DNA of 42,972 nt. Origin: Candidatus Woesearchaeota archaeon. Lineage in GTDB: Archaea > Nanobdellota > Nanobdellia > Pacearchaeales > GW2011-AR1. The notes beneath the pieces are model-generated. The model was not told where the DNA came from and searched no databases. It saw only the letters and a list, made by a program, of their open reading frames with translations. The DNA lies in the NCBI GenBank assembly GCA_964600865.1, contig CAZRJP010000002.1, positions 1 to 42,972 on the forward strand. The letters run 5' to 3'. The position numbers and the translations under genes were made by a program. Positions 3,594 through 42,869 of the stretch are shown piece after piece. Positions within the stretch are counted from its first letter, which is position 1, and every line of letters begins with the position of its first letter.

Positions 3594-4907
3594 ATGTCGT
3601 ATGATATAATTGTTGGAAGAGGCAAAGATGATAGAGAAAGATTAGAAAATAAAGGACTTATTAATATAGGTAAAGGATATGTTAAAATGGGTCAATACAC
3701 TTCTCTAAGCAATAAAATTTTTATGGATGTTGCTAAAAGTCATGTTGTCCTTGTGGCTGGAAAAAGAGGTTCTGGAAAAAGTTACACATTGGGAGTCATG
3801 GCAGAAGAAATGTCTAATCTTCCAAAAGAAGTTGCACAAAATGTTGGAACCTTAATCTATGATACAATGGGAATTTATTGGACAATGAAATATGCTAATG
3901 AAAAAGATAGGAAATTATTAGAAAAATGGGATTTAAAAAGTAAGACTCTTCCAGTAAAAGTATTTGTTCCATATGGAAAACATAATGAATATACTGACAA
4001 AGGAATTCCAGTAGATGAAAAATTTGCATTAGATGTTATGGAAATGCAACCAGAAGATTGGATCTTAACATTTGGGTTAGATATTGTAAATCCAATAGCA
4101 ACTCTTATTCAAAGAGTATTAAATAAATTAACCGAATCAAATAAAAAATACTCTATTAATGAAATTATTAAAGGGATAAAAAAAGACTCTTCTTCAGAAA
4201 AGATTCATAAAAATGCTGCAATAGGATTATTTGAAGCAGCGAATACATGGGGGATATTTGCTAAAAAAGGAGAAAAACCTACTCCAATAGGTAATCTTGT
4301 TACTGCAGGAACAACATCTGTTTTAGACTTAAGTGTATATAATTCAGTGGGAGCTTTTAATGTTCGTGCATTAGTAATTAGTTTAGTATCAAGAAAGCTA
4401 TTTAATCAAAGAATGATGGCAAGAAAAAAAGAAGAAATTAAATCTATTTCTCAAGGATTTGAATTATCTGGTACTGAAGAAAAAAAAGAATATCCTTTAG
4501 TTTGGATTTTCATAGATGAGGCACATGAATTCCTACCATTAAATGAAAAAACAATCGCAACTGATGCATTAATTCAATTACTTAGAGAAGGAAGACAGCC
4601 AGGAATCTCCGTTGTATTAGCAACACAACAACCAGGAAAAATCCACACAGATGTAATGACTCAATCAGACATTGTAATCTCTCATAGAGTTACAAGTAAA
4701 CCAGATGTAGAAGCACTAAATCACATTATGCAAAGTTATTTATTGGATACTATTAAAAAATACATGGATGATTTACCTAGTTTAAAGGGTTCTGCAATAA
4801 TTCTTGATGATAATTCAGAAAGAATCTATTCCATGAGAATGCGCCCAAGATTCACATGGCATGGAGGAGAAGCTCCTACTGCTGTTAAAGTTGAAAAAAG
4901 AATATAA
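3594..4907 (+). CDS. HerA/DUF87-like P-loop ATPase
   Basis: It has Walker A 'GKRGSGKS', Walker B 'LVWIFIDEAHEF' and a HerA-type 'ATQQPGKIHTDVMTQSDIVISHRV'. A GAGGT sits 8 nt upstream of the ATG. Confidence 0.7.
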   Translation: MSYDIIVGRGKDDRERLENKGLINIGKGYVKMGQYTSLSNKIFMDVAKSHVVLVAGKRGSGKSYTLGVMAEEMSNLPKEVAQNVGTLIYDTMGIYWTMKYANEKDRKLLEKWDLKSKTLPVKVFVPYGKHNEYTDKGIPVDEKFALDVMEMQPEDWILTFGLDIVNPIATLIQRVLNKLTESNKKYSINEIIKGIKKDSSSEKIHKNAAIGLFEAANTWGIFAKKGEKPTPIGNLVTAGTTSVLDLSVYNSVGAFNVRALVISLVSRKLFNQRMMARKKEEIKSISQGFELSGTEEKKEYPLVWIFIDEAHEFLPLNEKTIATDALIQLLREGRQPGISVVLATQQPGKIHTDVMTQSDIVISHRVTSKPDVEALNHIMQSYLLDTIKKYMDDLPSLKGSAIILDDNSERIYSMRMRPRFTWHGGEAPTAVKVEKRI

Positions 4908-4908
4908 A
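4864..4908. repeat. Direct repeat copy 1 (45 bp): last 14 codons plus stop of the HerA-like gene
   Basis: The sequence is gaggagaagctcctactgctgttaaagttgaaaaaagaatataaa. It matches 4993-5037 at 44/45 positions. Confidence 0.9.
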
Positions 4909-4992: not shown

Positions 4993-5037
4993 GAGGAGAA
5001 GCTCCTACTGCTGTTAAGGTTGAAAAAAGAATATAAA
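4993..5037. repeat. Direct repeat copy 2 (45 bp): non-coding remnant of the HerA-like 3' end
   Basis: The single mismatch (5018 g versus 4889 a) falls on a third codon position (AAA to AAG, both Lys). The in-frame codon spanning the start of the copy (4992-4994) is TGA, so it is not part of an ORF. Confidence 0.9.
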
Positions 5038-5617: not shown

Positions 5618-6403
5618 TTACAAAACATTAAAATCAACCCTAAATCTCACCTTATAAGGTGCAATTTCCCCTGCTTCTTTTTTATTAAAAATCTTTATTT
5701 TTTTATTAAATTCTCTTGCTTTTGATTTTATTTCTTCCAGAATTTTATCCTTTTCTTCAACAGGAGTAAACCCATAATAATAGATTCTTGTTCCTTTTTT
5801 ACTCAACTTAAAGGCCTGTTTTAAAAAAGTATCATCTAAATTAGGTCTAGGCATTACAATAACATCAAATTTTTCTTTTCCAAATTTATTCTGTCTAACT
5901 AATCTCTTAATATCTCCCTGAATTAATTCCACTTTATCTTCTAATTTATTTAATCTAACATTTAACTTAGCATATTCATTTGCTTTTCTATTTATTTCAT
6001 TTGAAACAACCTTTTTACATTTAGAATTTTTTGCAATGACAATTGAATATGGCGCAACACCTGCAAACATTACTAAAACACTCTCTCCTTTTTTTATTTC
6101 AGAAGCAACCTCATTTCTTTCATTGCTTAATCTAGGAGAAAAATAAGTATCATCTACATTAAACCTAAAAACACATCCATTCTCTTTATACTTGACCTCT
6201 TTATTCTTCTCTCCAGCAATATGTTTTGTTCCCATAGTTCTCAATCTCCCAGAAACTTTCTTAGATTTTTCCAAAACAGTTTTAACACTTTTATGATTCT
6301 TTAAAATCTTTTTAGCAAACTTTTTTTTATACTTTTTTGTAGCACCATCCTGAAAATTAACAATAGCAATATTCCCTAAAACATTAAATGACCTTTGTTT
6401 CAT
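5618..6403 (-). CDS. trm5: tRNA (guanine37-N1)-methyltransferase Trm5 family
   Basis: It has 'FNVLGNIAIV', 'YFSPRLSNER', the SAM-binding 'LVMFAGVAPYSIVIAK' and 'VIVMPRPN'. Confidence 0.75.
   Translation of the reverse strand: MKQRSFNVLGNIAIVNFQDGATKKYKKKFAKKILKNHKSVKTVLEKSKKVSGRLRTMGTKHIAGEKNKEVKYKENGCVFRFNVDDTYFSPRLSNERNEVASEIKKGESVLVMFAGVAPYSIVIAKNSKCKKVVSNEINRKANEYAKLNVRLNKLEDKVELIQGDIKRLVRQNKFGKEKFDVIVMPRPNLDDTFLKQAFKLSKKGTRIYYYGFTPVEEKDKILEEIKSKAREFNKKIKIFNKKEAGEIAPYKVRFRVDFNVL
6372..6403. repeat. Direct repeat copy 1 (32 bp): functional 5' end of trm5
   Basis: The sequence ttccctaaaacattaaatgacctttgtttcat is identical (32/32) to 7369-7400. On the minus strand it reads ATGAAACAAAGGTCATTTAATGTTTTAGGGAA. 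Confidence 0.95.
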
Positions 6404-6813
6404 TCCAAATACTCCTTAATTAGTTTAATTCTTAATTTTCTCATATCCCTTATTAATCTTTTAGAATCCTCAATAGAAACATCTTTCCCATAATAATTTA
6501 TTGAATTTCTTATCCTTCTAAATTTATCAAAGTCAAAAGATTCTTTTTCAAGTTTTAATACTTCTTTTAAAAAACCAAAGAAACAATCATGATTATAAAT
6601 TTTAAATTCATTTTTAACAGCTATAGCTTCTAAAACTTCTCTTAAAGAATCATAATTAATAGAAACTTTTGTTGAAGCTGTATCTTTATTTAAGGGAGAA
6701 AATTTATCGGTTATAAGTTTCCTTTTACTTTGAATTAGAAGTGATTTAATAAGTTGCTTATCTGTTTTTATCTTTTTGACAAATTTTTTTAATCTACATT
6801 CTCTCCAATTCAT
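6400..6813 (-). CDS. HEPN-domain protein (partner of the upstream nucleotidyltransferase)
   Basis: It is a helical 137-aa protein with a C-terminal 'RRIRNSINYYG' (HEPN-like R-x-x-R-N-x-x-x-Y). ATGA overlaps link it to the MNT gene upstream and trm5 downstream. Confidence 0.6.
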   Translation of the reverse strand: MNWRECRLKKFVKKIKTDKQLIKSLLIQSKRKLITDKFSPLNKDTASTKVSINYDSLREVLEAIAVKNEFKIYNHDCFFGFLKEVLKLEKESFDFDKFRRIRNSINYYGKDVSIEDSKRLIRDMRKLRIKLIKEYLE

Positions 6814-7313
6814 GAAATATAACCTCCAAGAATATATCCATTAATAACATTTAACTTTAATTCTTCATTAATCTTATCTAAAGAAGAGTATTGAAAAATT
6901 TGAAGTTCTCTTTTTAATTTCCTTTCAAATTTTTTCAAATTTAAATTCTTATTAGAAATTCCTAAAACAACTATATCAATATCAGACTCCTTTTTATTTT
7001 CAAGCTTAGCCAAAGAACCAAATAAAATAATTGCACTTGGGGAAAACTTCCCTAAATAATCTACCACTTCCCTAAGTTTACTTTCCCAATAAATCCTAGA
7101 CAAATCTCTTGAAATAGAACTATCTTTATTAATCCTAAACAAAAGATAGTTTCTTTCTTTCCTACTTTTCAAAATTCCTTCAGAAACATAATTCCTTAAT
7201 AATTTAGAAGCAGTAGGAGGACTCATATCCTTTACCCTTGAGTACTCTCTTACCCCTAATTCAGTATAACTATCTTCAAAAAAAGGTTTTAAATTGTTAA
7301 TAATATCTAACAT
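6810..7313 (-). CDS. Winged-helix + minimal nucleotidyltransferase (MNT) fusion protein
   Basis: An N-terminal wHTH-like segment is followed by the NTase signature 'ILFGSLAKLENKKESDIDIVVL' (GS...D.D). Confidence 0.75.
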   Translation of the reverse strand: MLDIINNLKPFFEDSYTELGVREYSRVKDMSPPTASKLLRNYVSEGILKSRKERNYLLFRINKDSSISRDLSRIYWESKLREVVDYLGKFSPSAIILFGSLAKLENKKESDIDIVVLGISNKNLNLKKFERKLKRELQIFQYSSLDKINEELKLNVINGYILGGYIS

Positions 7314-7368
7314 GTGTTAAGATAATTTAACATACTTTATAAACTTTATCATAAAAATAATTTATTAT

Positions 7369-7400
7369 TTCCCTAAAACATTAAATGACCTTTGTTTCAT
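7369..7400. repeat. Direct repeat copy 2 (32 bp): orphaned trm5 start
   Basis: It is identical to 6372-6403. On the minus strand the ATG at 7400-7398 opens an 11-codon remnant (MKQRSFNVLGK*). Confidence 0.95.
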
Positions 7401-7423
7401 AATTCTGAAAAAATATCCAGATC

Positions 7424-7441
7424 TTTATAATATAAAATAAA
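7424..7441. promoter_or_regulatory. TATA-like AT tract in a divergent intergenic region
   Basis: The tract tttataatataaaataaa lies 24-41 nt upstream of the orphaned trm5 ATG (minus strand) and about 47-64 nt upstream of the ATG at 7488 (plus strand). The genome is so AT-rich that this call is weak. Confidence 0.25.
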
Positions 7442-7487
7442 ATCATAACATGAATAGATTTATAAAAATAAATTTCCTATTAAAAGC

Positions 7488-8855
7488 ATGAAAAAAAGAG
7501 GCTTAAACTGGCTAATTATAACCACATTTATACTTTCATTCAACTTAATTTCTGCTGCAACAGGTTTAGGAGATTTTTTAGATGCAATTGGCACAGAAAC
7601 AATTGTACTTATCTCTGGTTTTATCATATCCTTTGCACTTACTCATTATTCTCTTAATAAAGCACTTGAATGGGATTCTAAAATTTCTGCAGCAATTGCA
7701 GTAGCTATTGCATTTTTAGTGACACAAGGAATAAATAAATTTAATTTAGGATTTCAAACCCAAAGAATACTAATTGATGTTGGAATTACATCAGACTTAG
7801 GGAATATTTTAATTGGTTTAATTACTTTACTAGCAATAGTTTTATTCATAATATATCTTATTAAAAAAGGTATAGAAAAATCTAAAATACATCATAAAAA
7901 ATCTCATCCATTCAAGATACTTATTTTCTTTATTGGTTCAAGCTTGATTGCCCTAGGAATTTTCGCAGATATTTATAATTCAATTGTTATAACGGTTGTA
8001 GGTTCTATTTTAATATTATTAGCTTTATTTTCTAAGGGCGGAGATGATGATGATGATGATGATGATTATGAAAAAGAAAATATAAGAATGATGGACACCC
8101 TAAATTTAATCTTGCTTCTTACTGGAATAGGGCTAATTATTTTAGGAGTTTACGGTGCAGGAGGAATCTATACCTTAGGAATAGGATTTATTGCAATTAT
8201 ACTCCTAATATGGAGGAATTGGAAAAAATGGAAGATAAAAAGAAAAATGAAAAAGATACATCAAAAAGGCAGGGATTTTGAGAATTGGAAAGAAGAAAAA
8301 CATGAAAGAAGGAGAGAACAAAAAAGAAAAGAAGCAGAGTATAAACACCAACAAAGATTAAAAAATTTAAGAGAAGATGCTCAAAAAGATTTAAACACTG
8401 TATCTCAACACATAAGAAAAAACAGAAATCCTAAAGATATCTATGAAAAAACAAGAAAGGCCTATATTGCAAAAGGCAGGTCTAAAAGAACTACCCAAGA
8501 TGAAATGGAGATTATTGAAAAAACAATAAACAAATTAGATGAAATGTATGCTGATTGGGTAAATTCACAAAGAAAAGGACAAAAACAATTAGAGTCACGT
8601 GAAATGAAATCAAAGAGAAAAAGAAAAAAAAGACAGAAAAAATTAGAATCAGGTAAAAAACGGAAAAAAAGACAGAAAAGATTAGATAATCTAAGAAAAA
8701 GATATAAAGAATTATCAAAAGAAACAGAACAAATCTATAAGAAGGTTGGAGGACATATACCTTCAAAAAAGAAACAGAAAAAAGCATATAAAAGATATAT
8801 GGACATTAGAAACAAAATGAAAAAAATTGAAAAAATGTTAAAGAAATTTGGATAA
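7488..8855 (+). CDS. Multi-pass membrane protein with a poly-Asp run and a long, highly basic coiled-coil tail
   Basis: There are about 8 hydrophobic segments, a 'GGDDDDDDDDYEKEN' loop, and a C-terminal ~200 aa dominated by K/R/E with an internal repeat 'KRKKRQKKLES / KRKKRQKRLDN'. Confidence 0.55.
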   Translation: MKKRGLNWLIITTFILSFNLISAATGLGDFLDAIGTETIVLISGFIISFALTHYSLNKALEWDSKISAAIAVAIAFLVTQGINKFNLGFQTQRILIDVGITSDLGNILIGLITLLAIVLFIIYLIKKGIEKSKIHHKKSHPFKILIFFIGSSLIALGIFADIYNSIVITVVGSILILLALFSKGGDDDDDDDDYEKENIRMMDTLNLILLLTGIGLIILGVYGAGGIYTLGIGFIAIILLIWRNWKKWKIKRKMKKIHQKGRDFENWKEEKHERRREQKRKEAEYKHQQRLKNLREDAQKDLNTVSQHIRKNRNPKDIYEKTRKAYIAKGRSKRTTQDEMEIIEKTINKLDEMYADWVNSQRKGQKQLESREMKSKRKRKKRQKKLESGKKRKKRQKRLDNLRKRYKELSKETEQIYKKVGGHIPSKKKQKKAYKRYMDIRNKMKKIEKMLKKFG

Positions 8856-19304: not shown

Positions 19305-20192
19305 TTATTTTTTCTTCAATAACCTTATCCTATTCTCATTACCATAAGGTATTTTTTCTATTAATTCTTTTTGCTGAAGTTTTCTAAGTTTTCTACTTAA
19401 TCTTACCTTACTAATTCCTAAATCATTAACAATTTCTTTAGTCCATGATTCATTTTTTTTCTTGTTTAATAAATACTCTATTATTTCCTTTTGTTCTCCA
19501 TATAAATTTCTTGTTAATTTCTTCTTTAAATCTGTTTTTTTCTTAGATTTTTTACTTTTTTTAGATTTCTTCTTAGATTTCTTCTTAGATTTCTTCTTAG
19601 ATTTCTTCTTAGATTTCTTTTTTAAAATATTAATCTTCTTTTTAAGAATAACTGTTTGATAAAAAACAATAAATGCAATTAATAAAACTACAAAAACAGG
19701 CCAGAATAATTCTATTTCATTAACTGGTTCATATGAAATAAGAACATCCTTAGAATTAATATTTTCCCATTTTAAAATAACTCTCCTTCCATCTGTAATA
19801 ATATTATAATTTTCAGGAAAAATAATTTTGTTTTTAGTAAGAATAGCTTTTTCAGGAAGTCTAACAGTTAAATTAACAACTCCCTCAAATTTATCTCCTG
19901 TTAATATAAAAAAATGTTTTTCTTTTACTCCCTCAATAACACTCTCTGTAATATAACTTACAATTAACTCTTCAGAAGAATCTACTTTTAATGATTGATT
20001 TATTATTTTAAAATCTTCATTTGATTCAATTGTTCTAGCATCATATGGTAATTTATATCCAAAATTAGAAACCCTTCCAAAATTTATTTCTGCTAATGTT
20101 TTATCTTCTACAATAGTGTAATTTACAGAAACAGCACTTACTAATCCTATCATCCATATCACAAAAAGGCTAAATAATATTATCTTCTTCAT
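19305..20192 (-). CDS. Membrane-anchored protein with extracellular domain, KKS-repeat linker and C-terminal winged-helix domain
   Basis: It has a signal peptide, a ~150-aa ectodomain, the TM 'FWPVFVVLLIAFIVFY', a (KKSK)n repeat, and a wHTH-like segment 'EIIEYLLNKKKNESWTKEIVNDLGISKVRLSRKLRKLQQKELIEK'. Confidence 0.55.
   Translation of the reverse strand: MKKIILFSLFVIWMIGLVSAVSVNYTIVEDKTLAEINFGRVSNFGYKLPYDARTIESNEDFKIINQSLKVDSSEELIVSYITESVIEGVKEKHFFILTGDKFEGVVNLTVRLPEKAILTKNKIIFPENYNIITDGRRVILKWENINSKDVLISYEPVNEIELFWPVFVVLLIAFIVFYQTVILKKKINILKKKSKKKSKKKSKKKSKKKSKKSKKSKKKTDLKKKLTRNLYGEQKEIIEYLLNKKKNESWTKEIVNDLGISKVRLSRKLRKLQQKELIEKIPYGNENRIRLLKKK
19561..19620. repeat. 12-bp tandem repeat x5 (ttagatttcttc), coding
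   Basis: Four perfect units plus one unit with one change encode the KKSKKKSKKKS... linker of the 19305-20192 protein. Confidence 0.9.
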
Positions 20193-31709: not shown

Positions 31710-33221
31710 TTATTTCTTATTCTGTCTCTTTCCAATCTGAAATCTTAAAATAGCTGCAATTCCACTCATATTTTTGAATTGATCTCCCTCTTCTGTTTCT
31801 GTAGAAACAACTTCCACATTGGAACTAATTGATTTTGCTTTTTTCTTTAATTCTTTTAATAATGGTTTATCTAAAGATTTAGATAAAACTAAAGTATCTA
31901 CAGCGCCATATTTTAATGCTCTTTCAACAGGTTTTTGTTTTAATGCAGAAAGTTCAGGCTTTTCTCCAAGATTTCTAAACAATTTTTCTAAAATCTTTTT
32001 TTCATATATCATTTCTTGATCTGCTAAAATCTTTTGAGATTTTTGAACTAATTCTTTTAATCCAGATTCATCTGTGTCTCCTATATCTACTCTCCCTATA
32101 ACCTTTTCCTGAAGATTTGTAACCAAATACTCTCCCTCTAAAAATTCATCTTTAGTTGGAACAGGACCTCCAAGAATAATCCCTTTTAATTTTGGATTTT
32201 TAAAAAAAGACCTTTTTGCTTCTTTTGCAATTCTCTTATAAAATTTCTTAGTTAATCCCTCAGTAATTCTATGAAATCTTTGAGCAGAATTATGAACAAC
32301 ATGAGAATTAGCAATAAAATTTTTATTTTCAACTTCCAAATCAATCAATTCTATATCAGAAATCTCGTGATTAATTAATGATATTTTACTTCTACTTCCA
32401 TCATCAAAAACTAAATCATCTCCATTAATTAATTTGCCCGCAGTCTTTTCAACTATCTTTTCATTTTCATAAACAAAAAATAAATGATTTCCAGAAGAGA
32501 TAATAGGGGGATATTTTGTTAAAGATATCTTATAATAATCTTTTTTATTAACTTTCCATTTTTTCAAAACTTTAGAATAAATTTGTTTGTTTTGATTAAA
32601 ATCAAAACCTTTAATATAATCTCCTTTTTTAATATCTTTCAATTTAATTTTACTTTTATTTTTTGTATTCACAATTGTCTCTGGAGAAAGGCACTGCCCG
32701 CCTGCCCTTACTTTAGAAGGAACACCTGAAGTCATTTTATGAATAACATTTATTCTTTTCCCTTCCAACAATCCAATAGTTGCTTCTTTTCTATCCATAA
32801 CAATTAATCCATAAACTTCCTCAACCTCTAATTGTTTTTTTAATGGCTCTAAAACAAAATCTTTGTCACATCTATATAATCTTGTTTTTAATGGGATAGG
32901 CGGTTCAATTGCCCATAATCTAATATCCTTTTGTCCTTCAGATTCAGCAACATTCCCAGAAAACAATGCTAATCCATTTTTAGGTGTTTTTTTCAAACCT
33001 TTCAAATGCCTAATAATTTTTTCCAAAGCATCAGTAACATTTTTTTTAGTTGAAGATGATTTAATGTTCTTTGCAGTAGATGTCTCTGCTTCAAGTTGCC
33101 TTTGGGCTGCATTAACATCATAACCTGCAGAAACATAAACTGAAATAAGCTCAGTATGTCTCCCTCTATATTCACTTAATTCCTCAACAATCTCTTCAAG
33201 TTCATCTTTATCTAATGGCAT
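31710..33221 (-). CDS. prf1: Peptide chain release factor aRF1, interrupted by a mini-intein
   Basis: It has NIKS ('TAKNIKSS'), YxCxxxF ('LYRCDKDF') and GGQ ('VRAGGQ'). After GGQ comes a 135-aa insert, and then 'SAQRFHRI' resumes the conserved aRF1 sequence. Confidence 0.9.
   Translation of the reverse strand: MPLDKDELEEIVEELSEYRGRHTELISVYVSAGYDVNAAQRQLEAETSTAKNIKSSSTKKNVTDALEKIIRHLKGLKKTPKNGLALFSGNVAESEGQKDIRLWAIEPPIPLKTRLYRCDKDFVLEPLKKQLEVEEVYGLIVMDRKEATIGLLEGKRINVIHKMTSGVPSKVRAGGQCLSPETIVNTKNKSKIKLKDIKKGDYIKGFDFNQNKQIYSKVLKKWKVNKKDYYKISLTKYPPIISSGNHLFFVYENEKIVEKTAGKLINGDDLVFDDGSRSKISLINHEISDIELIDLEVENKNFIANSHVVHNSAQRFHRITEGLTKKFYKRIAKEAKRSFFKNPKLKGIILGGPVPTKDEFLEGEYLVTNLQEKVIGRVDIGDTDESGLKELVQKSQKILADQEMIYEKKILEKLFRNLGEKPELSALKQKPVERALKYGAVDTLVLSKSLDKPLLKELKKKAKSISSNVEVVSTETEEGDQFKNMSGIAAILRFQIGKRQNKK
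32289..32693 (-). mobile_element. Mini-intein (135 aa, no homing-endonuclease domain) in aRF1
   Basis: The insert starts with 'CLSPETIV' (Cys1, block A) and has block B-like 'SSGNHLF'. It ends with 'DLEVENKNFIANSHVVHN' followed by Ser(+1). I verified the codons TGC at 32693-32691, CAT-AAT at 32294-32289 and TCT at 32288-32286. Confidence 0.85.
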
Positions 33222-42758: not shown

Positions 42759-42869
42759 GAGCCTGTAGCTCAGTCTGGTCAGAGCACTACATTCTGTTAT
42801 AGAATAAAATCTATACAGAAGGTGATTCTGATAAGGTAGGGGTCCACGGTTCAAATCCGTGCAGGCTCA
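42759..42869 (+). tRNA. tRNA-Ile (anticodon GAU) with a 36-nt intron at non-canonical position 30/31
   Basis: The acceptor is GAGCCTG/CAGGCTC with discriminator A. The D arm is GCTC-AGTCTGGTCA-GAGC and the T arm is CACGG-TTCAAAT-CCGTG. Removing 42791-42826 gives the anticodon arm CTACT-CTGATAA-GGTAG. A BHB fold places both splice sites correctly (see finding). Confidence 0.75.
42791..42826 (+). other. tRNA intron (BHB-bounded)
   Basis: The central 4-bp helix is C42785-A-C-T42788 paired with G42821-G-T-G42824. The 3-nt bulges are A42789-C-A42791 and A42825-T-T42827. The distal helix pairs 42792-42797 with 42815-42820 and continues from 42799-42802 to 42811-42814. Confidence 0.7.

Follow-up and report, generated by a model that had tools for sequence, protein, structure and literature searches.

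A wHTH-MNT/HEPN cassette between duplicated first codons of trm5 in a Pacearchaeota genome, and target-derived direct repeats around some of its relatives

How does a two-gene cassette come to lie between a conserved tRNA-modification gene and the promoter from which that gene appears to have once been read? The question is raised by a stretch of 42,972 nucleotides (contig CAZRJP010000002.1 of assembly GCA_964600865.1; hereafter "the window"), which belongs to a Pacearchaeota (DPANN) genome obtained by metagenome assembly and in which trm5 is preceded, on the minus strand, by a gene for a fusion of a winged helix-turn-helix (wHTH) domain with a minimal nucleotidyltransferase (MNT) and by a HEPN-fold gene, the pair being enclosed by two copies of the first 32 nt of trm5. 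Toxin-antitoxin (TA) and candidate defence pairs are highly mobile, and the entry of such pairs into chromosomes without obvious mobile elements is rarely documented. The explanation favored here, with moderate confidence, is that a mobile cassette was inserted with duplication of its target and without a recombinase encoded in cis; the evidence for this reading, the points that weigh against it and the alternatives are presented below.

The trm5 locus and its cassette-free relatives

Exactly two copies of the 32-mer TTCCCTAAAACATTAAATGACCTTTGTTTCAT are present in the window (Table 1); they are identical at 32 of 32 positions, the bases flanking them differ at either side so that the repeat measures exactly 32 nt, and no further match with up to three mismatches was found in the window, just as 100 dinucleotide shuffles yielded 0 matches. 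The 965 bp between the copies consist of two minus-strand open reading frames (ORFs) of 167 and 137 amino acids, and ATGA overlaps at 6810-6813 (between these two ORFs) and at 6400-6403 (between the 137-aa ORF and trm5) chain the three genes. The distal copy opens an ORF whose stop codon arises where the repeat meets the cassette. The repeat, the two-gene content with its ATGA chaining and the reading of the distal copy as an ORF of 11 codons had all been proposed in an initial annotation made from the sequence, and all stand. The base composition of the cassette (GC 0.21-0.31, as against 0.24-0.30 in the flanks) carries no signal of foreign origin.

The identity of the interrupted gene is well supported by its domains, namely the TRM5/TYW2 methyltransferase domain (PF02475, 7.2e-38) and the TYW2-type N-terminal domain (PF25133, TYW2_N_2, 1.1e-11), both scoring over cut-off, while the best NCBIfam match is Trm5b with a score under the equivalog cut-off; on these sequence grounds the product is a Trm5-family tRNA (m1G37) methyltransferase. 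Its N-terminus MKQRSFNVLGNIAIVNF agrees with that of orthologues (e.g., MKHRSFNVLGNIAV in L002), and a total of 3020 Trm5 homologues was found.

That the cassette entered at the first codons of trm5, as initially claimed, is borne out by syntenic relatives devoid of it. Loci L002 and L003/L004, whose Trm5 is 70% identical, have the genes FEN1, divergent membrane gene, trm5, small ORFs and HerA in this order; they are without the cassette, and trm5 is separated from the divergent gene by only 71-77 bp. L001 is the nearest relative, with a Trm5 identity of 79%; it retains the membrane gene, trm5 and HerA, is likewise cassette-free, and has 100 bp upstream of the annotated trm5 start. In the window, 87 bp lie between the distal ATG (7400) and the ATG of the divergent gene (7488), the latter having TTTATA at position -29. 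Within this interval, the motif ATTTTTATAAATCTATTCAT shows no variation among the window, L001, L003 and L010 and hardly any in L002 and L006.

Across the genes of the window, the occurrence of TATA-like hexamers has a sharp maximum at -30 to -27 of the ATG, positions that correspond to the geometry of leaderless-type promoters, and internal operon genes carry GGAGG-like motifs instead. Since the distal copy stands behind ATTTTTATAAATCTATTCAT and a TATA box at -30, at the ancestral spacing, it can be taken as the original trm5 start, with its own promoter still upstream. The proximal ATG has no TATA-like hexamer at -30 to -27, so that trm5 is most likely read as the third cistron of the cassette operon. 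Judging from these signals, trm5, formerly a leaderless gene, has most probably become the coupled third cistron of an operon, and its expression may now depend on the cassette.

The divergent membrane protein (7488-8855, plus strand) has features of its own, namely an eight-Asp run and a long Lys/Arg-rich tail with a 39-nt tandem repeat (8608-8685); conservation among its orthologues is poor (28-37% identity), the gene order being nonetheless kept.

Target-derived repeats and the control region of the cassette family

Are such repeats a property of this locus or of the large DPANN family to which the cassette belongs? For each locus, the 350 nt upstream of the MNT ATG were locally aligned to the 350 nt downstream of the HEPN stop, the controls being windows shifted by 1.3-3 kb within the same loci at the same spacing. 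Two sets were used, 68 species-representative genomes and 80 metagenome contigs, 59 cassette loci being scored in each. At a score of at least 16, repeats were detected at 14/59 loci of the first set and in 0/275 shifted controls; at a score of at least 18, 15/59 loci of the second set were positive and 0/154 controls. Thus, in two independent sets, 20-25% of the cassettes are flanked by direct repeats of their own target, the corresponding figure for the controls being 0/429.

After removal of duplicates, 26 distinct cases remained, with repeats of 17-137 nt, identities between 82 and 100%, and different targets. At L133, L121, L019 and L067 the target is the start of another gene, the ATG marking the exact beginning of the repeat and the upstream copy lying behind that gene's TATA box at -30; at L033 (72/72), L062 and L114 it is a promoter, the repeat ending in the TATA box with 7-10 nt shared with the transcription factor B recognition element (BRE)/TATA of the cassette; at L023 it is the 3' end of the upstream gene (137 nt, 88% identity) and at L056 the 3' end of a tRNA-Leu gene. 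Copies of the cassette bounded by duplicated starts of different genes, whose existence the initial annotation had made a test of its claim together with that of empty trm5 sites, are therefore found alongside the cassette-free trm5 loci. The end of the upstream copy ranges in position from -23 to -149 relative to the MNT ATG; its downstream counterpart begins, in most cases, within -4 to +31 of the HEPN stop, and no motif is common to the junctions of the 26 cases. The spread of identities, from 100% down to 82%, is what would be expected from decay of the copy left unused by each duplication. Only ~5 of 130 distinct cassettes lie near trm5, and a functional tie between a tRNA-targeting HEPN protein and Trm5 was rejected on this ground.

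In agreement with the initial annotation, no integrase or transposase was found among the 39 genes scanned in the window, all of which are housekeeping genes, and clustering of 677 ORFs in the 3-4-kb flanks of the 130 distinct loci revealed no recurrent recombinase. The cassette family is absent from the IMG/VR viral contigs, in which no viral vehicle was therefore found.

An unbiased scan for exact repeats 18 nt or longer, covering the 733 kb of the 130 loci, indicated that other TA-like units and islands (L117, L041, L143) are bracketed in the same manner, the local target being present as direct repeats of 33-50 nt. In L041 (3708-4910) a 47-nt repeat surrounds a different nucleotidyltransferase plus small-protein pair inserted directly after the HEPN stop of a family cassette; in L143 (191-2217) a 40-nt repeat encloses an extra gene together with the cassette; in L117 (426-4415) four TA-like pairs form a 3.9-kb island, and partial copies of a split 50-nt target lie around it. 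In L023 (3821-5790) the last 85-137 nt of a gene for a 1300-aa surface protein are present three times, these copies parting the surface-protein gene, the MNT-HEPN cassette, a RelE-like pair (96 and 107 aa) and a MazE/MazF-like pair. Each of these TA-like units begins at its own BRE/TATA and ends at its stop codon. Since other TA-like pairs have similar flanks, the agent that duplicates the target would not be encoded by this cassette family.

The left end of the cassette is a control region. In 112 distinct cassettes, the 45 nt before the MNT ATG are strongly conserved (consensus gAAAgATTTATAAACAnnTGTTAAnnnnnnnTTAACAT|ATGTTA), whereas upstream of about -40 the information content falls to ~0. 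ACAyATGTTA is found in 97% of these cassettes and TTAACAT at -7 to -1 in 88%, and the wHTH domain may bind the resulting palindrome and autoregulate the operon, a putative function suggested by the sequence. The same conservation modifies the earlier claim that the cassette captured the trm5 promoter: it carries a promoter/operator of its own, and read-through from the old trm5 promoter is the part of that claim kept in the present proposal.

As to the right end, no conserved sequence follows the HEPN stop in ~130 cassettes. The stop overlaps the ATG of the next gene in 28 of the 112 distinct cassettes and in 8 more that ATG lies at most 15 nt away; GGAG or GAGG is present in the last HEPN codons of 15 of these 36 tightly coupled cassettes. 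The HEPN genes of the family commonly end in ..AAATGA or GAATGA by themselves, so that the HEPN stop in the window was probably not created by the junction with the trm5 ATG, contrary to what had been supposed.

Table 1. Features of the trm5 locus in the window
Feature	Position	Strand	Remarks
trm5 gene	5618-6403	-	Pfam TRM5-TYW2_MTfase, E = 7e-38; most likely now third cistron behind the cassette
Proximal 32-mer copy, working trm5 start	6372-6403	-	ATG overlaps the HEPN stop (ATGA 6400-6403)
HEPN-fold gene, 137 aa	6400-6813	-	AlphaFold2 model and Foldseek; motif FDxFRxIRNSINYYG
Shine-Dalgarno-like AAGGAG	6412-6417	-	8 nt before the working trm5 ATG, within the last HEPN codons (IKEYLE*)
wHTH-MNT fusion gene, 167 aa	6810-7313	-	Pfam NTP_transf_2/Polbeta, E ~1e-8; GSX10DXD
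Shine-Dalgarno-like GGAGG	6823-6827	-	9 nt before the HEPN ATG, within the MNT coding sequence; direct reading
Palindrome TTAACACATGTTAG, putative wHTH operator	7307-7320	-	Centred on the MNT start codon; consensus TTAACATATGTTAA, 14 bp
Left end of the cassette	7314-7368	-	Own TATA box and upstream operator half-site
Upstream operator half-site ATGTTAA	7327-7333	-	Consensus of 112 distinct cassettes
Cassette TATA box TTTATAAAG	7335-7343	-	-30 of the MNT ATG
Relic 11-codon ORF MKQRSFNVLGK*	7365-7400	-	Direct reading; ATG plus 10 codons, then TAA
Distal 32-mer copy, upstream duplicate of the trm5 start	7369-7400	-	Exact match to 6372-6403; ancestral distance from the divergent gene
Ancestral trm5 TATA box TTATAAAG	7423-7430	-	30 nt upstream of the distal ATG 7400; aligns with the TATA of cassette-free relatives
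Conserved intergenic motif ATTTTTATAAATCTATTCAT	7450-7469	-	Includes the TATA box of the divergent membrane-protein gene; marks the ancestral trm5/divergent-gene intergenic region

Proposed route of insertion and rival explanations

The sequence of events that would account for the locus is the following. A promoter-to-stop-codon cassette (BRE/TATA, palindromic operator, wHTH-MNT, HEPN ending in ..ATGA) would have entered the 5' end of trm5 and duplicated its first 32 nt, leaving the upstream copy behind the old leaderless promoter as an 11-codon relic. Transcription of trm5 would then start from the cassette promoter, which wHTH-MNT probably represses, with a contribution of read-through from the old promoter, and translation would rely on the AAGGAG within the 3' end of the HEPN gene and on the ATGA stop/start overlap.

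The recombination route by which this would occur can be proposed more tentatively. The variable length of the repeats, the variable junctions and the lack of a recombinase suggest a recombinase-free insertion guided by short homology or microhomology, for which two routes can be envisaged. The first would be replicative template switching, in which synthesis leaves the target and comes back 17-137 nt upstream, a range that lies within the length of archaeal Okazaki fragments; the second would be homology-facilitated illegitimate recombination, anchored by homology and using a related donor. Some junctions lie in short shared motifs (TATA facing TATA at the left junction, ATGA(AA) facing gene starts at the right one), and selection would remove the insertions that break neighboring genes. 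Once the repeats exist, host homologous recombination could delete the cassette precisely or re-insert a circle composed of cassette and one repeat, and such pop-out and re-insertion would account both for the arrays and for the persistent association between trm5 and one cassette clade. An RNA-mediated (retro) insertion, suggested by repeats that begin at a leaderless start (ATG), was rejected because the cassette includes the promoter upstream of its own transcription start.

The history of the cassette at trm5 bears directly on these proposals. Taking both proteins together, the three cassettes closest to that of the window are 78%, 71% and 64% identical to it; they, too, immediately precede trm5, yet their junctions differ. 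The window has a 32-nt repeat of the trm5 start (100% identity) and an ATGA overlap at the HEPN/trm5 junction; L006/7/8, known from three independent assemblies (ENA and two JGI samples), have a repeat of 112 nt (93%) and the same overlap, the new trm5 start of L006 (ATGAAA) coming from the cassette tail and the relic upstream copy starting with ATGGTT; L082 has a repeat of ~20 nt and again the overlap; in L010 no repeat is seen and a 40-nt spacer precedes trm5. In L010 the MNT ATG lies 49 nt from the divergent-promoter motif, the same spacing as that of the ancestral trm5 ATG in the window, which places its left junction at the TATA box. The cassette-free loci L001-L004 interleave with the cassette-bearing hosts by Trm5 and HerA identity. 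Two histories fit these data, one old insertion followed by junction remodelling, gene conversion and losses, or repeated re-insertion from related donors anchored on trm5 homology. The initial reading holds as far as insertion is concerned, but the event need not be recent or unique, because related cassettes (71-78% identical) lie upstream of trm5 in other lineages with different junctions.

As a separate observation, L085 (139-3637) contains a TA island upstream of trm5, in which a HicB/HicA-like pair, a cassette of the present family, a canonical MntA/HepT pair (RNILVH, on the other strand) and a small membrane ORF are followed by trm5.

A second short repeat of the window, at the 3' end of HerA, is instructive in this respect. 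The last 45 nt of the gene (4864-4908) recur 129 nt downstream (4993-5037) with 44/45 identity, and the 84 nt between the copies hold the conserved core CTCTGGAATGCCTGGCATGGCGAGT. This unit of 124-129 nt is present in L001 (4448-4625) and L006 (2837-3040) as 2-3 units and is absent from L002 and L003. Its interpretation as a second insertion scar was rejected, since L001 and L006 both conserve the whole unit in the form of a short tandem array, the copies of which change together inside any one genome; the sequences indicate instead either concerted evolution of a short tandem array or a functional element.

Several findings weigh against an insertion of the kind favored here. None of the junction events was observed directly and the mechanism rests on inference; ~75-80% of the cassettes have no detectable flanking repeat; microhomology is clear at the TATA and ATGA junctions only, the others being without obvious shared motif. 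At trm5 itself, the exact look-up of the window Trm5 in the contig index gave no match and hence no strain-level empty site; the trm5-linked cassettes form one clade (78/71/68% identity), so that the insertion in the window may descend from one old event; the lack of a cassette in L001, the nearest relative, requires loss or horizontal transfer; and, since short repeats such as that of HerA evolve in concert, a perfect 32-mer is not proof of a recent insertion. Finally, the three-copy array of L023 and the tRNA 3' end of L056 resemble the accretion of elements at integrase att sites.

Some of these points are taken up by an alternative that, in our estimate, is unlikely, namely that MNT-HEPN-trm5 is an old, vertically inherited operon of one Pacearchaeota subclade, not currently mobile here, which goes back to a single old entry, the 32-mer being what remains of a longer duplication (cf. 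L006) preserved by gene conversion and the cassette-free relatives having lost the cassette via the repeats. It would account for the trm5-linked cassettes being mutually closest, with a divergence (71-78%) similar to that of the host Trm5/HerA (66-79%); the HerA repeat shows that short direct repeats do evolve in concert in these lineages, and repeats would permit a precise loss restoring the empty site. On the other hand, the three closest cassettes have three left junctions and two right junctions; 32/32 identity over a neutral relic would need repeated gene conversion of a 32-nt tract with its partner 965 bp away; and the left-end homology to L010 reaches ~-50 while the repeat ends at -55, without trace of a longer decayed copy. 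Moreover, this alternative concerns the age of the event in the window alone and leaves the family-wide repeats at other targets unexplained.

The main rival as regards mechanism, which we consider improbable, is site-specific integration by an integrase acting in trans, or else the survival of the remnant of a larger element, the repeats being attL and attR and the TA pair the addictive survivor. Repeats at gene 5' ends, at 3' ends and at the 3' end of a tRNA-Leu gene do correspond to classic att locations, identity blocks of this order (tens of nucleotides) are known for archaeal att sites, and the tandem arrays of L023 share one repeated gene end, as would be produced by accretion at a single attB. 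Yet no integrase lies within 3-4 kb of the 130 distinct loci or in the 43-kb window, the targets are at least a dozen unrelated sequences without a common junction motif, and the left junction varies by more than 100 nt, at times cutting into the cassette promoter. The repeat length differs even at trm5 alone (32, ~112 and ~20 nt, and none seen in L010), the family has no relatives on viral contigs, and perfect repeats of 55-72 nt, which suggest recent events, enclose the 1-kb cassette alone and so would have left no time for the decay of a larger element.

An assembly artefact, in which an empty site and a small circle of cassette plus one 32-mer were joined in silico, is very hard to sustain: a k=31 unitig (L005; Logan, run SRR7048220, 1025 bp) running from position 3 of the repeat through the entire cassette to position 30 of the other copy fits a circle equally well, but its ends match the expectation of a k=31 graph for a 32-nt repeat, so that both inner junctions exist in the read data, the contig crosses both copies, 32 nt are fewer than normal reads and than the final k of common assemblers, the non-identical copies found elsewhere (93%, 88% and 82%) cannot be collapsed or mis-joined, and the architecture of the L006 lineage recurs in its three independent assemblies.

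Insertion with target duplication and without a recombinase in cis thus being preferred, a broader and more doubtful generalization may be formulated, namely that DPANN archaea host recombinase-free mobile cassettes, built as promoter-to-stop units with a Shine-Dalgarno sequence and an ATGA coupler, which would insert by short homology at leaderless starts, TATA boxes or gene ends with duplication of 17-137 nt, the repeats then serving as "att" sites for host recombination (excision, re-insertion and integron-like arrays) and essential genes such as trm5, once downstream, adding a second layer of addiction.

The cassette proteins and known systems

The assignment of the two proteins as a wHTH-MNT fusion and a HEPN-fold protein, already made in the initial annotation, is supported by the agreement of structure prediction and fold search. 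The AlphaFold2 model of the 167-aa protein has a predicted local distance difference test (pLDDT) score of 94.7; its C-terminal half matches MNT antitoxins (8xeo, 7bxo, 8xeh, 2rff) and its N-terminal half has fold matches to winged-helix repressors of the SmtB/ArsR, MarR and Sso10a kinds, so that a wHTH-MNT fusion is supported by the model. The GSX10DXD motif is exact (LFG-S-LAKLENKKES-D-I-D, with G99, S100 ... D111 x D113) and its residues are invariant in 30 homologues. The model of the 137-aa protein (pLDDT 97.7) likewise supports a HEPN fold: the top Foldseek match is the HEPN protein AF_0298 (2hsb; template modelling score 0.74/0.80, probability 1.0), followed by the HepT/HEPN toxins of solved HEPN-MNT complexes. 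By sequence, this protein has no match in Pfam (E <= 1), in the PDB profile search or in NCBIfam, and none of 32 HEPN family members matches PF05168 at E <= 1.

The motif of the HEPN protein given in Table 1 is invariant and its tyrosines are conserved. The Rx4-6H RNase motif is absent, no His being found 4-6 residues past R99 or R102 in 32 aligned homologues, and without it the label "toxin" is unproven. The view of the pair as a TA-like module is therefore sustained with regard to the MNT and HEPN folds and weakened with regard to the toxin; a TA or defence activity may be supposed from the likeness to known systems.

Which known systems does the pair resemble? Both subunits of PDC-M05 (nucleotidyltransferase plus HEPN) are matched by the adjacent genes of the window: PADLOC model PDC-M05A hits the 167-aa protein (E = 2.8e-12, residues 11-144) and PDC-M05B the 137-aa protein (E = 2.9e-5), and, the models having no curated cut-off, membership is probable but distant. 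PDC-M05 is enriched in archaea, probably of archaeal origin and TA-like in architecture, with an unconfirmed antiviral role (PMC12988326); neither an insertion architecture nor flanking repeats are described for it in the literature examined, unlike the cassette of the window.

With the Type VII HepT/MntA systems (Class I), such as Shewanella SO_3166/SO_3165, the pair shares the position of MNT upstream of HEPN, the stop/start overlap, the GSX10DXD motif and the two folds, which match the solved complexes 7bxo, 5yep and 8xeh. The motif has been defined, and Tyr identified as the AMPylated residue of HepT, in earlier work (PMC7641770), and the HEPN protein of the window likewise has a conserved Tyr beside its RN motif. 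In contrast to Type VII HepT, this protein lacks the RX4HXY RNase motif (RNSINYYG in its place), the pair has no Pfam DUF86 or NTase_sub_bind match, the MNT protein carries an additional N-terminal wHTH domain, and the NCBIfam MntA model gives 29.5 bits on it against a cut-off of 60.

Similar, too, are the Class II HEPN/MNT pairs (PF05168 plus PF01909), common in archaea, devoid of the RNase motif, retaining the Tyr and never validated as TA systems (PMC7641770). AF_0298 (PDB 2hsb), a protein of the PF05168 type, is the nearest structure to the HEPN protein of the window, and the pair has the traits of this class (no RX4H, conserved Tyr, neighboring MNT with GSX10DXD, archaeal distribution), differing in that its HEPN protein reaches no Pfam HEPN model by sequence. 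Thus, the gene pair resembles a known kind (Class II HEPN/MNT, PDC-M05), for which toxin activity is not established.

As far as mobility is concerned, the cassettes of integrons, including the TA cassettes of chromosomal integrons, are likewise compact mobile units of 1-2 genes, and integron arrays resemble the rows of different TA cassettes parted by repeated sequence in L023 and L117. Unlike them, the present cassettes have no attC or IntI, possess their own promoters and are separated by copies of the local target, e.g., a gene end; an integron was rejected since no attC-like conserved 3' sequence was found in ~130 cassettes and no IntI in the flanks. An insertion sequence (IS) element, a DDE transposon or a MITE does not fit repeats of 17-137 nt, variable junctions, the lack of a conserved right end and the failure to find a transposase. 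Integrase islands and cis-mobilisable elements are alike in the repeats of gene 5' or 3' ends or tRNA genes, in the intact regeneration of the target and in tandem accretion, whereas the cassettes measure ~1 kb, have no integrase inside or near, and display variable junctions and a repeat length that varies at one target; between the repeats of the window the two cassette genes stand alone, as would not be expected of an integrative element. There may also be a likeness to homology-facilitated illegitimate recombination, microhomology template switching and laboratory pop-in/pop-out integration, which share the short junction motifs, the variable duplication length, the absence of a dedicated recombinase and the precise excision that direct repeats permit. 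To our knowledge, such general repair and transformation processes have not been described as a routine route for the spread of TA cassettes in archaeal chromosomes.

Archaeal TA cassettes flanked by direct repeats of their target are likewise not described in the literature searched, an absence within that library and not proof of novelty, and flanking repeats go unmentioned in the 2009 survey that predicted MNT-HEPN to be a TA system; in this literature, neither the insertion architecture nor its recurrence across DPANN genomes appears to have been described. What the family offers is a set of readable insertion scars, with target duplications of variable length, left junctions varying by more than 100 nt, arrays parted by target copies and no recombinase nearby. 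If the proposal is true, they would provide a sequence signature with which gene gain can be dated and counted in uncultivated archaea with reduced genomes, a possible route of horizontal transfer without an integrase, and a natural plug-in expression unit with promoter/operator in front and a Shine-Dalgarno sequence plus ATGA coupler behind; an essential tRNA-modification gene could thereby exchange a leaderless promoter for a place in a selfish cassette's operon with its reading frame kept.

Some further features were encountered. In L010 (Logan SRR21285564) the stored gene calls P0122 and P0242 exceed the standard-code ORFs, the HEPN call ending in ..KYLKWK; the gene caller apparently read TGA as sense, the standard-code end of this HEPN gene being AAATGA. 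A segmental direct duplication of L120 (21-5700), with a spacing of 3849 nt, ~1.8 kb repeated and exact stretches of up to 125 nt, brackets the cassette segment. In L026 (2699-3920; Pacearchaeota UBA73) a CRISPR array with the 37-nt repeat GTTTCATATTCAGAACAAAGGGATTAAGGAATGCAAC and a period of ~74 ends ~80 nt upstream of the cassette, CRISPR being reportedly rare in DPANN archaea. The HerA orthologue of L001 (4569-7190, 873 aa) contains an intein with a LAGLIDADG domain, whereas HerA of the window (437 aa) has no intein; an intein is found in the window within the eRF1 gene (31710-33221, minus strand; Pfam Intein_splicing and Hint at residues 173-271). The window also contains 4-5 tandem copies of the 12-nt unit TTCTTAGATTTC (19558-19622) in or beside the gene at 19305-20192, and, at 42759-42869 on the plus strand, a 111-nt tRNA detected by Rfam (51 bits) and not reported by ARAGORN, probably an intron-containing archaeal tRNA.

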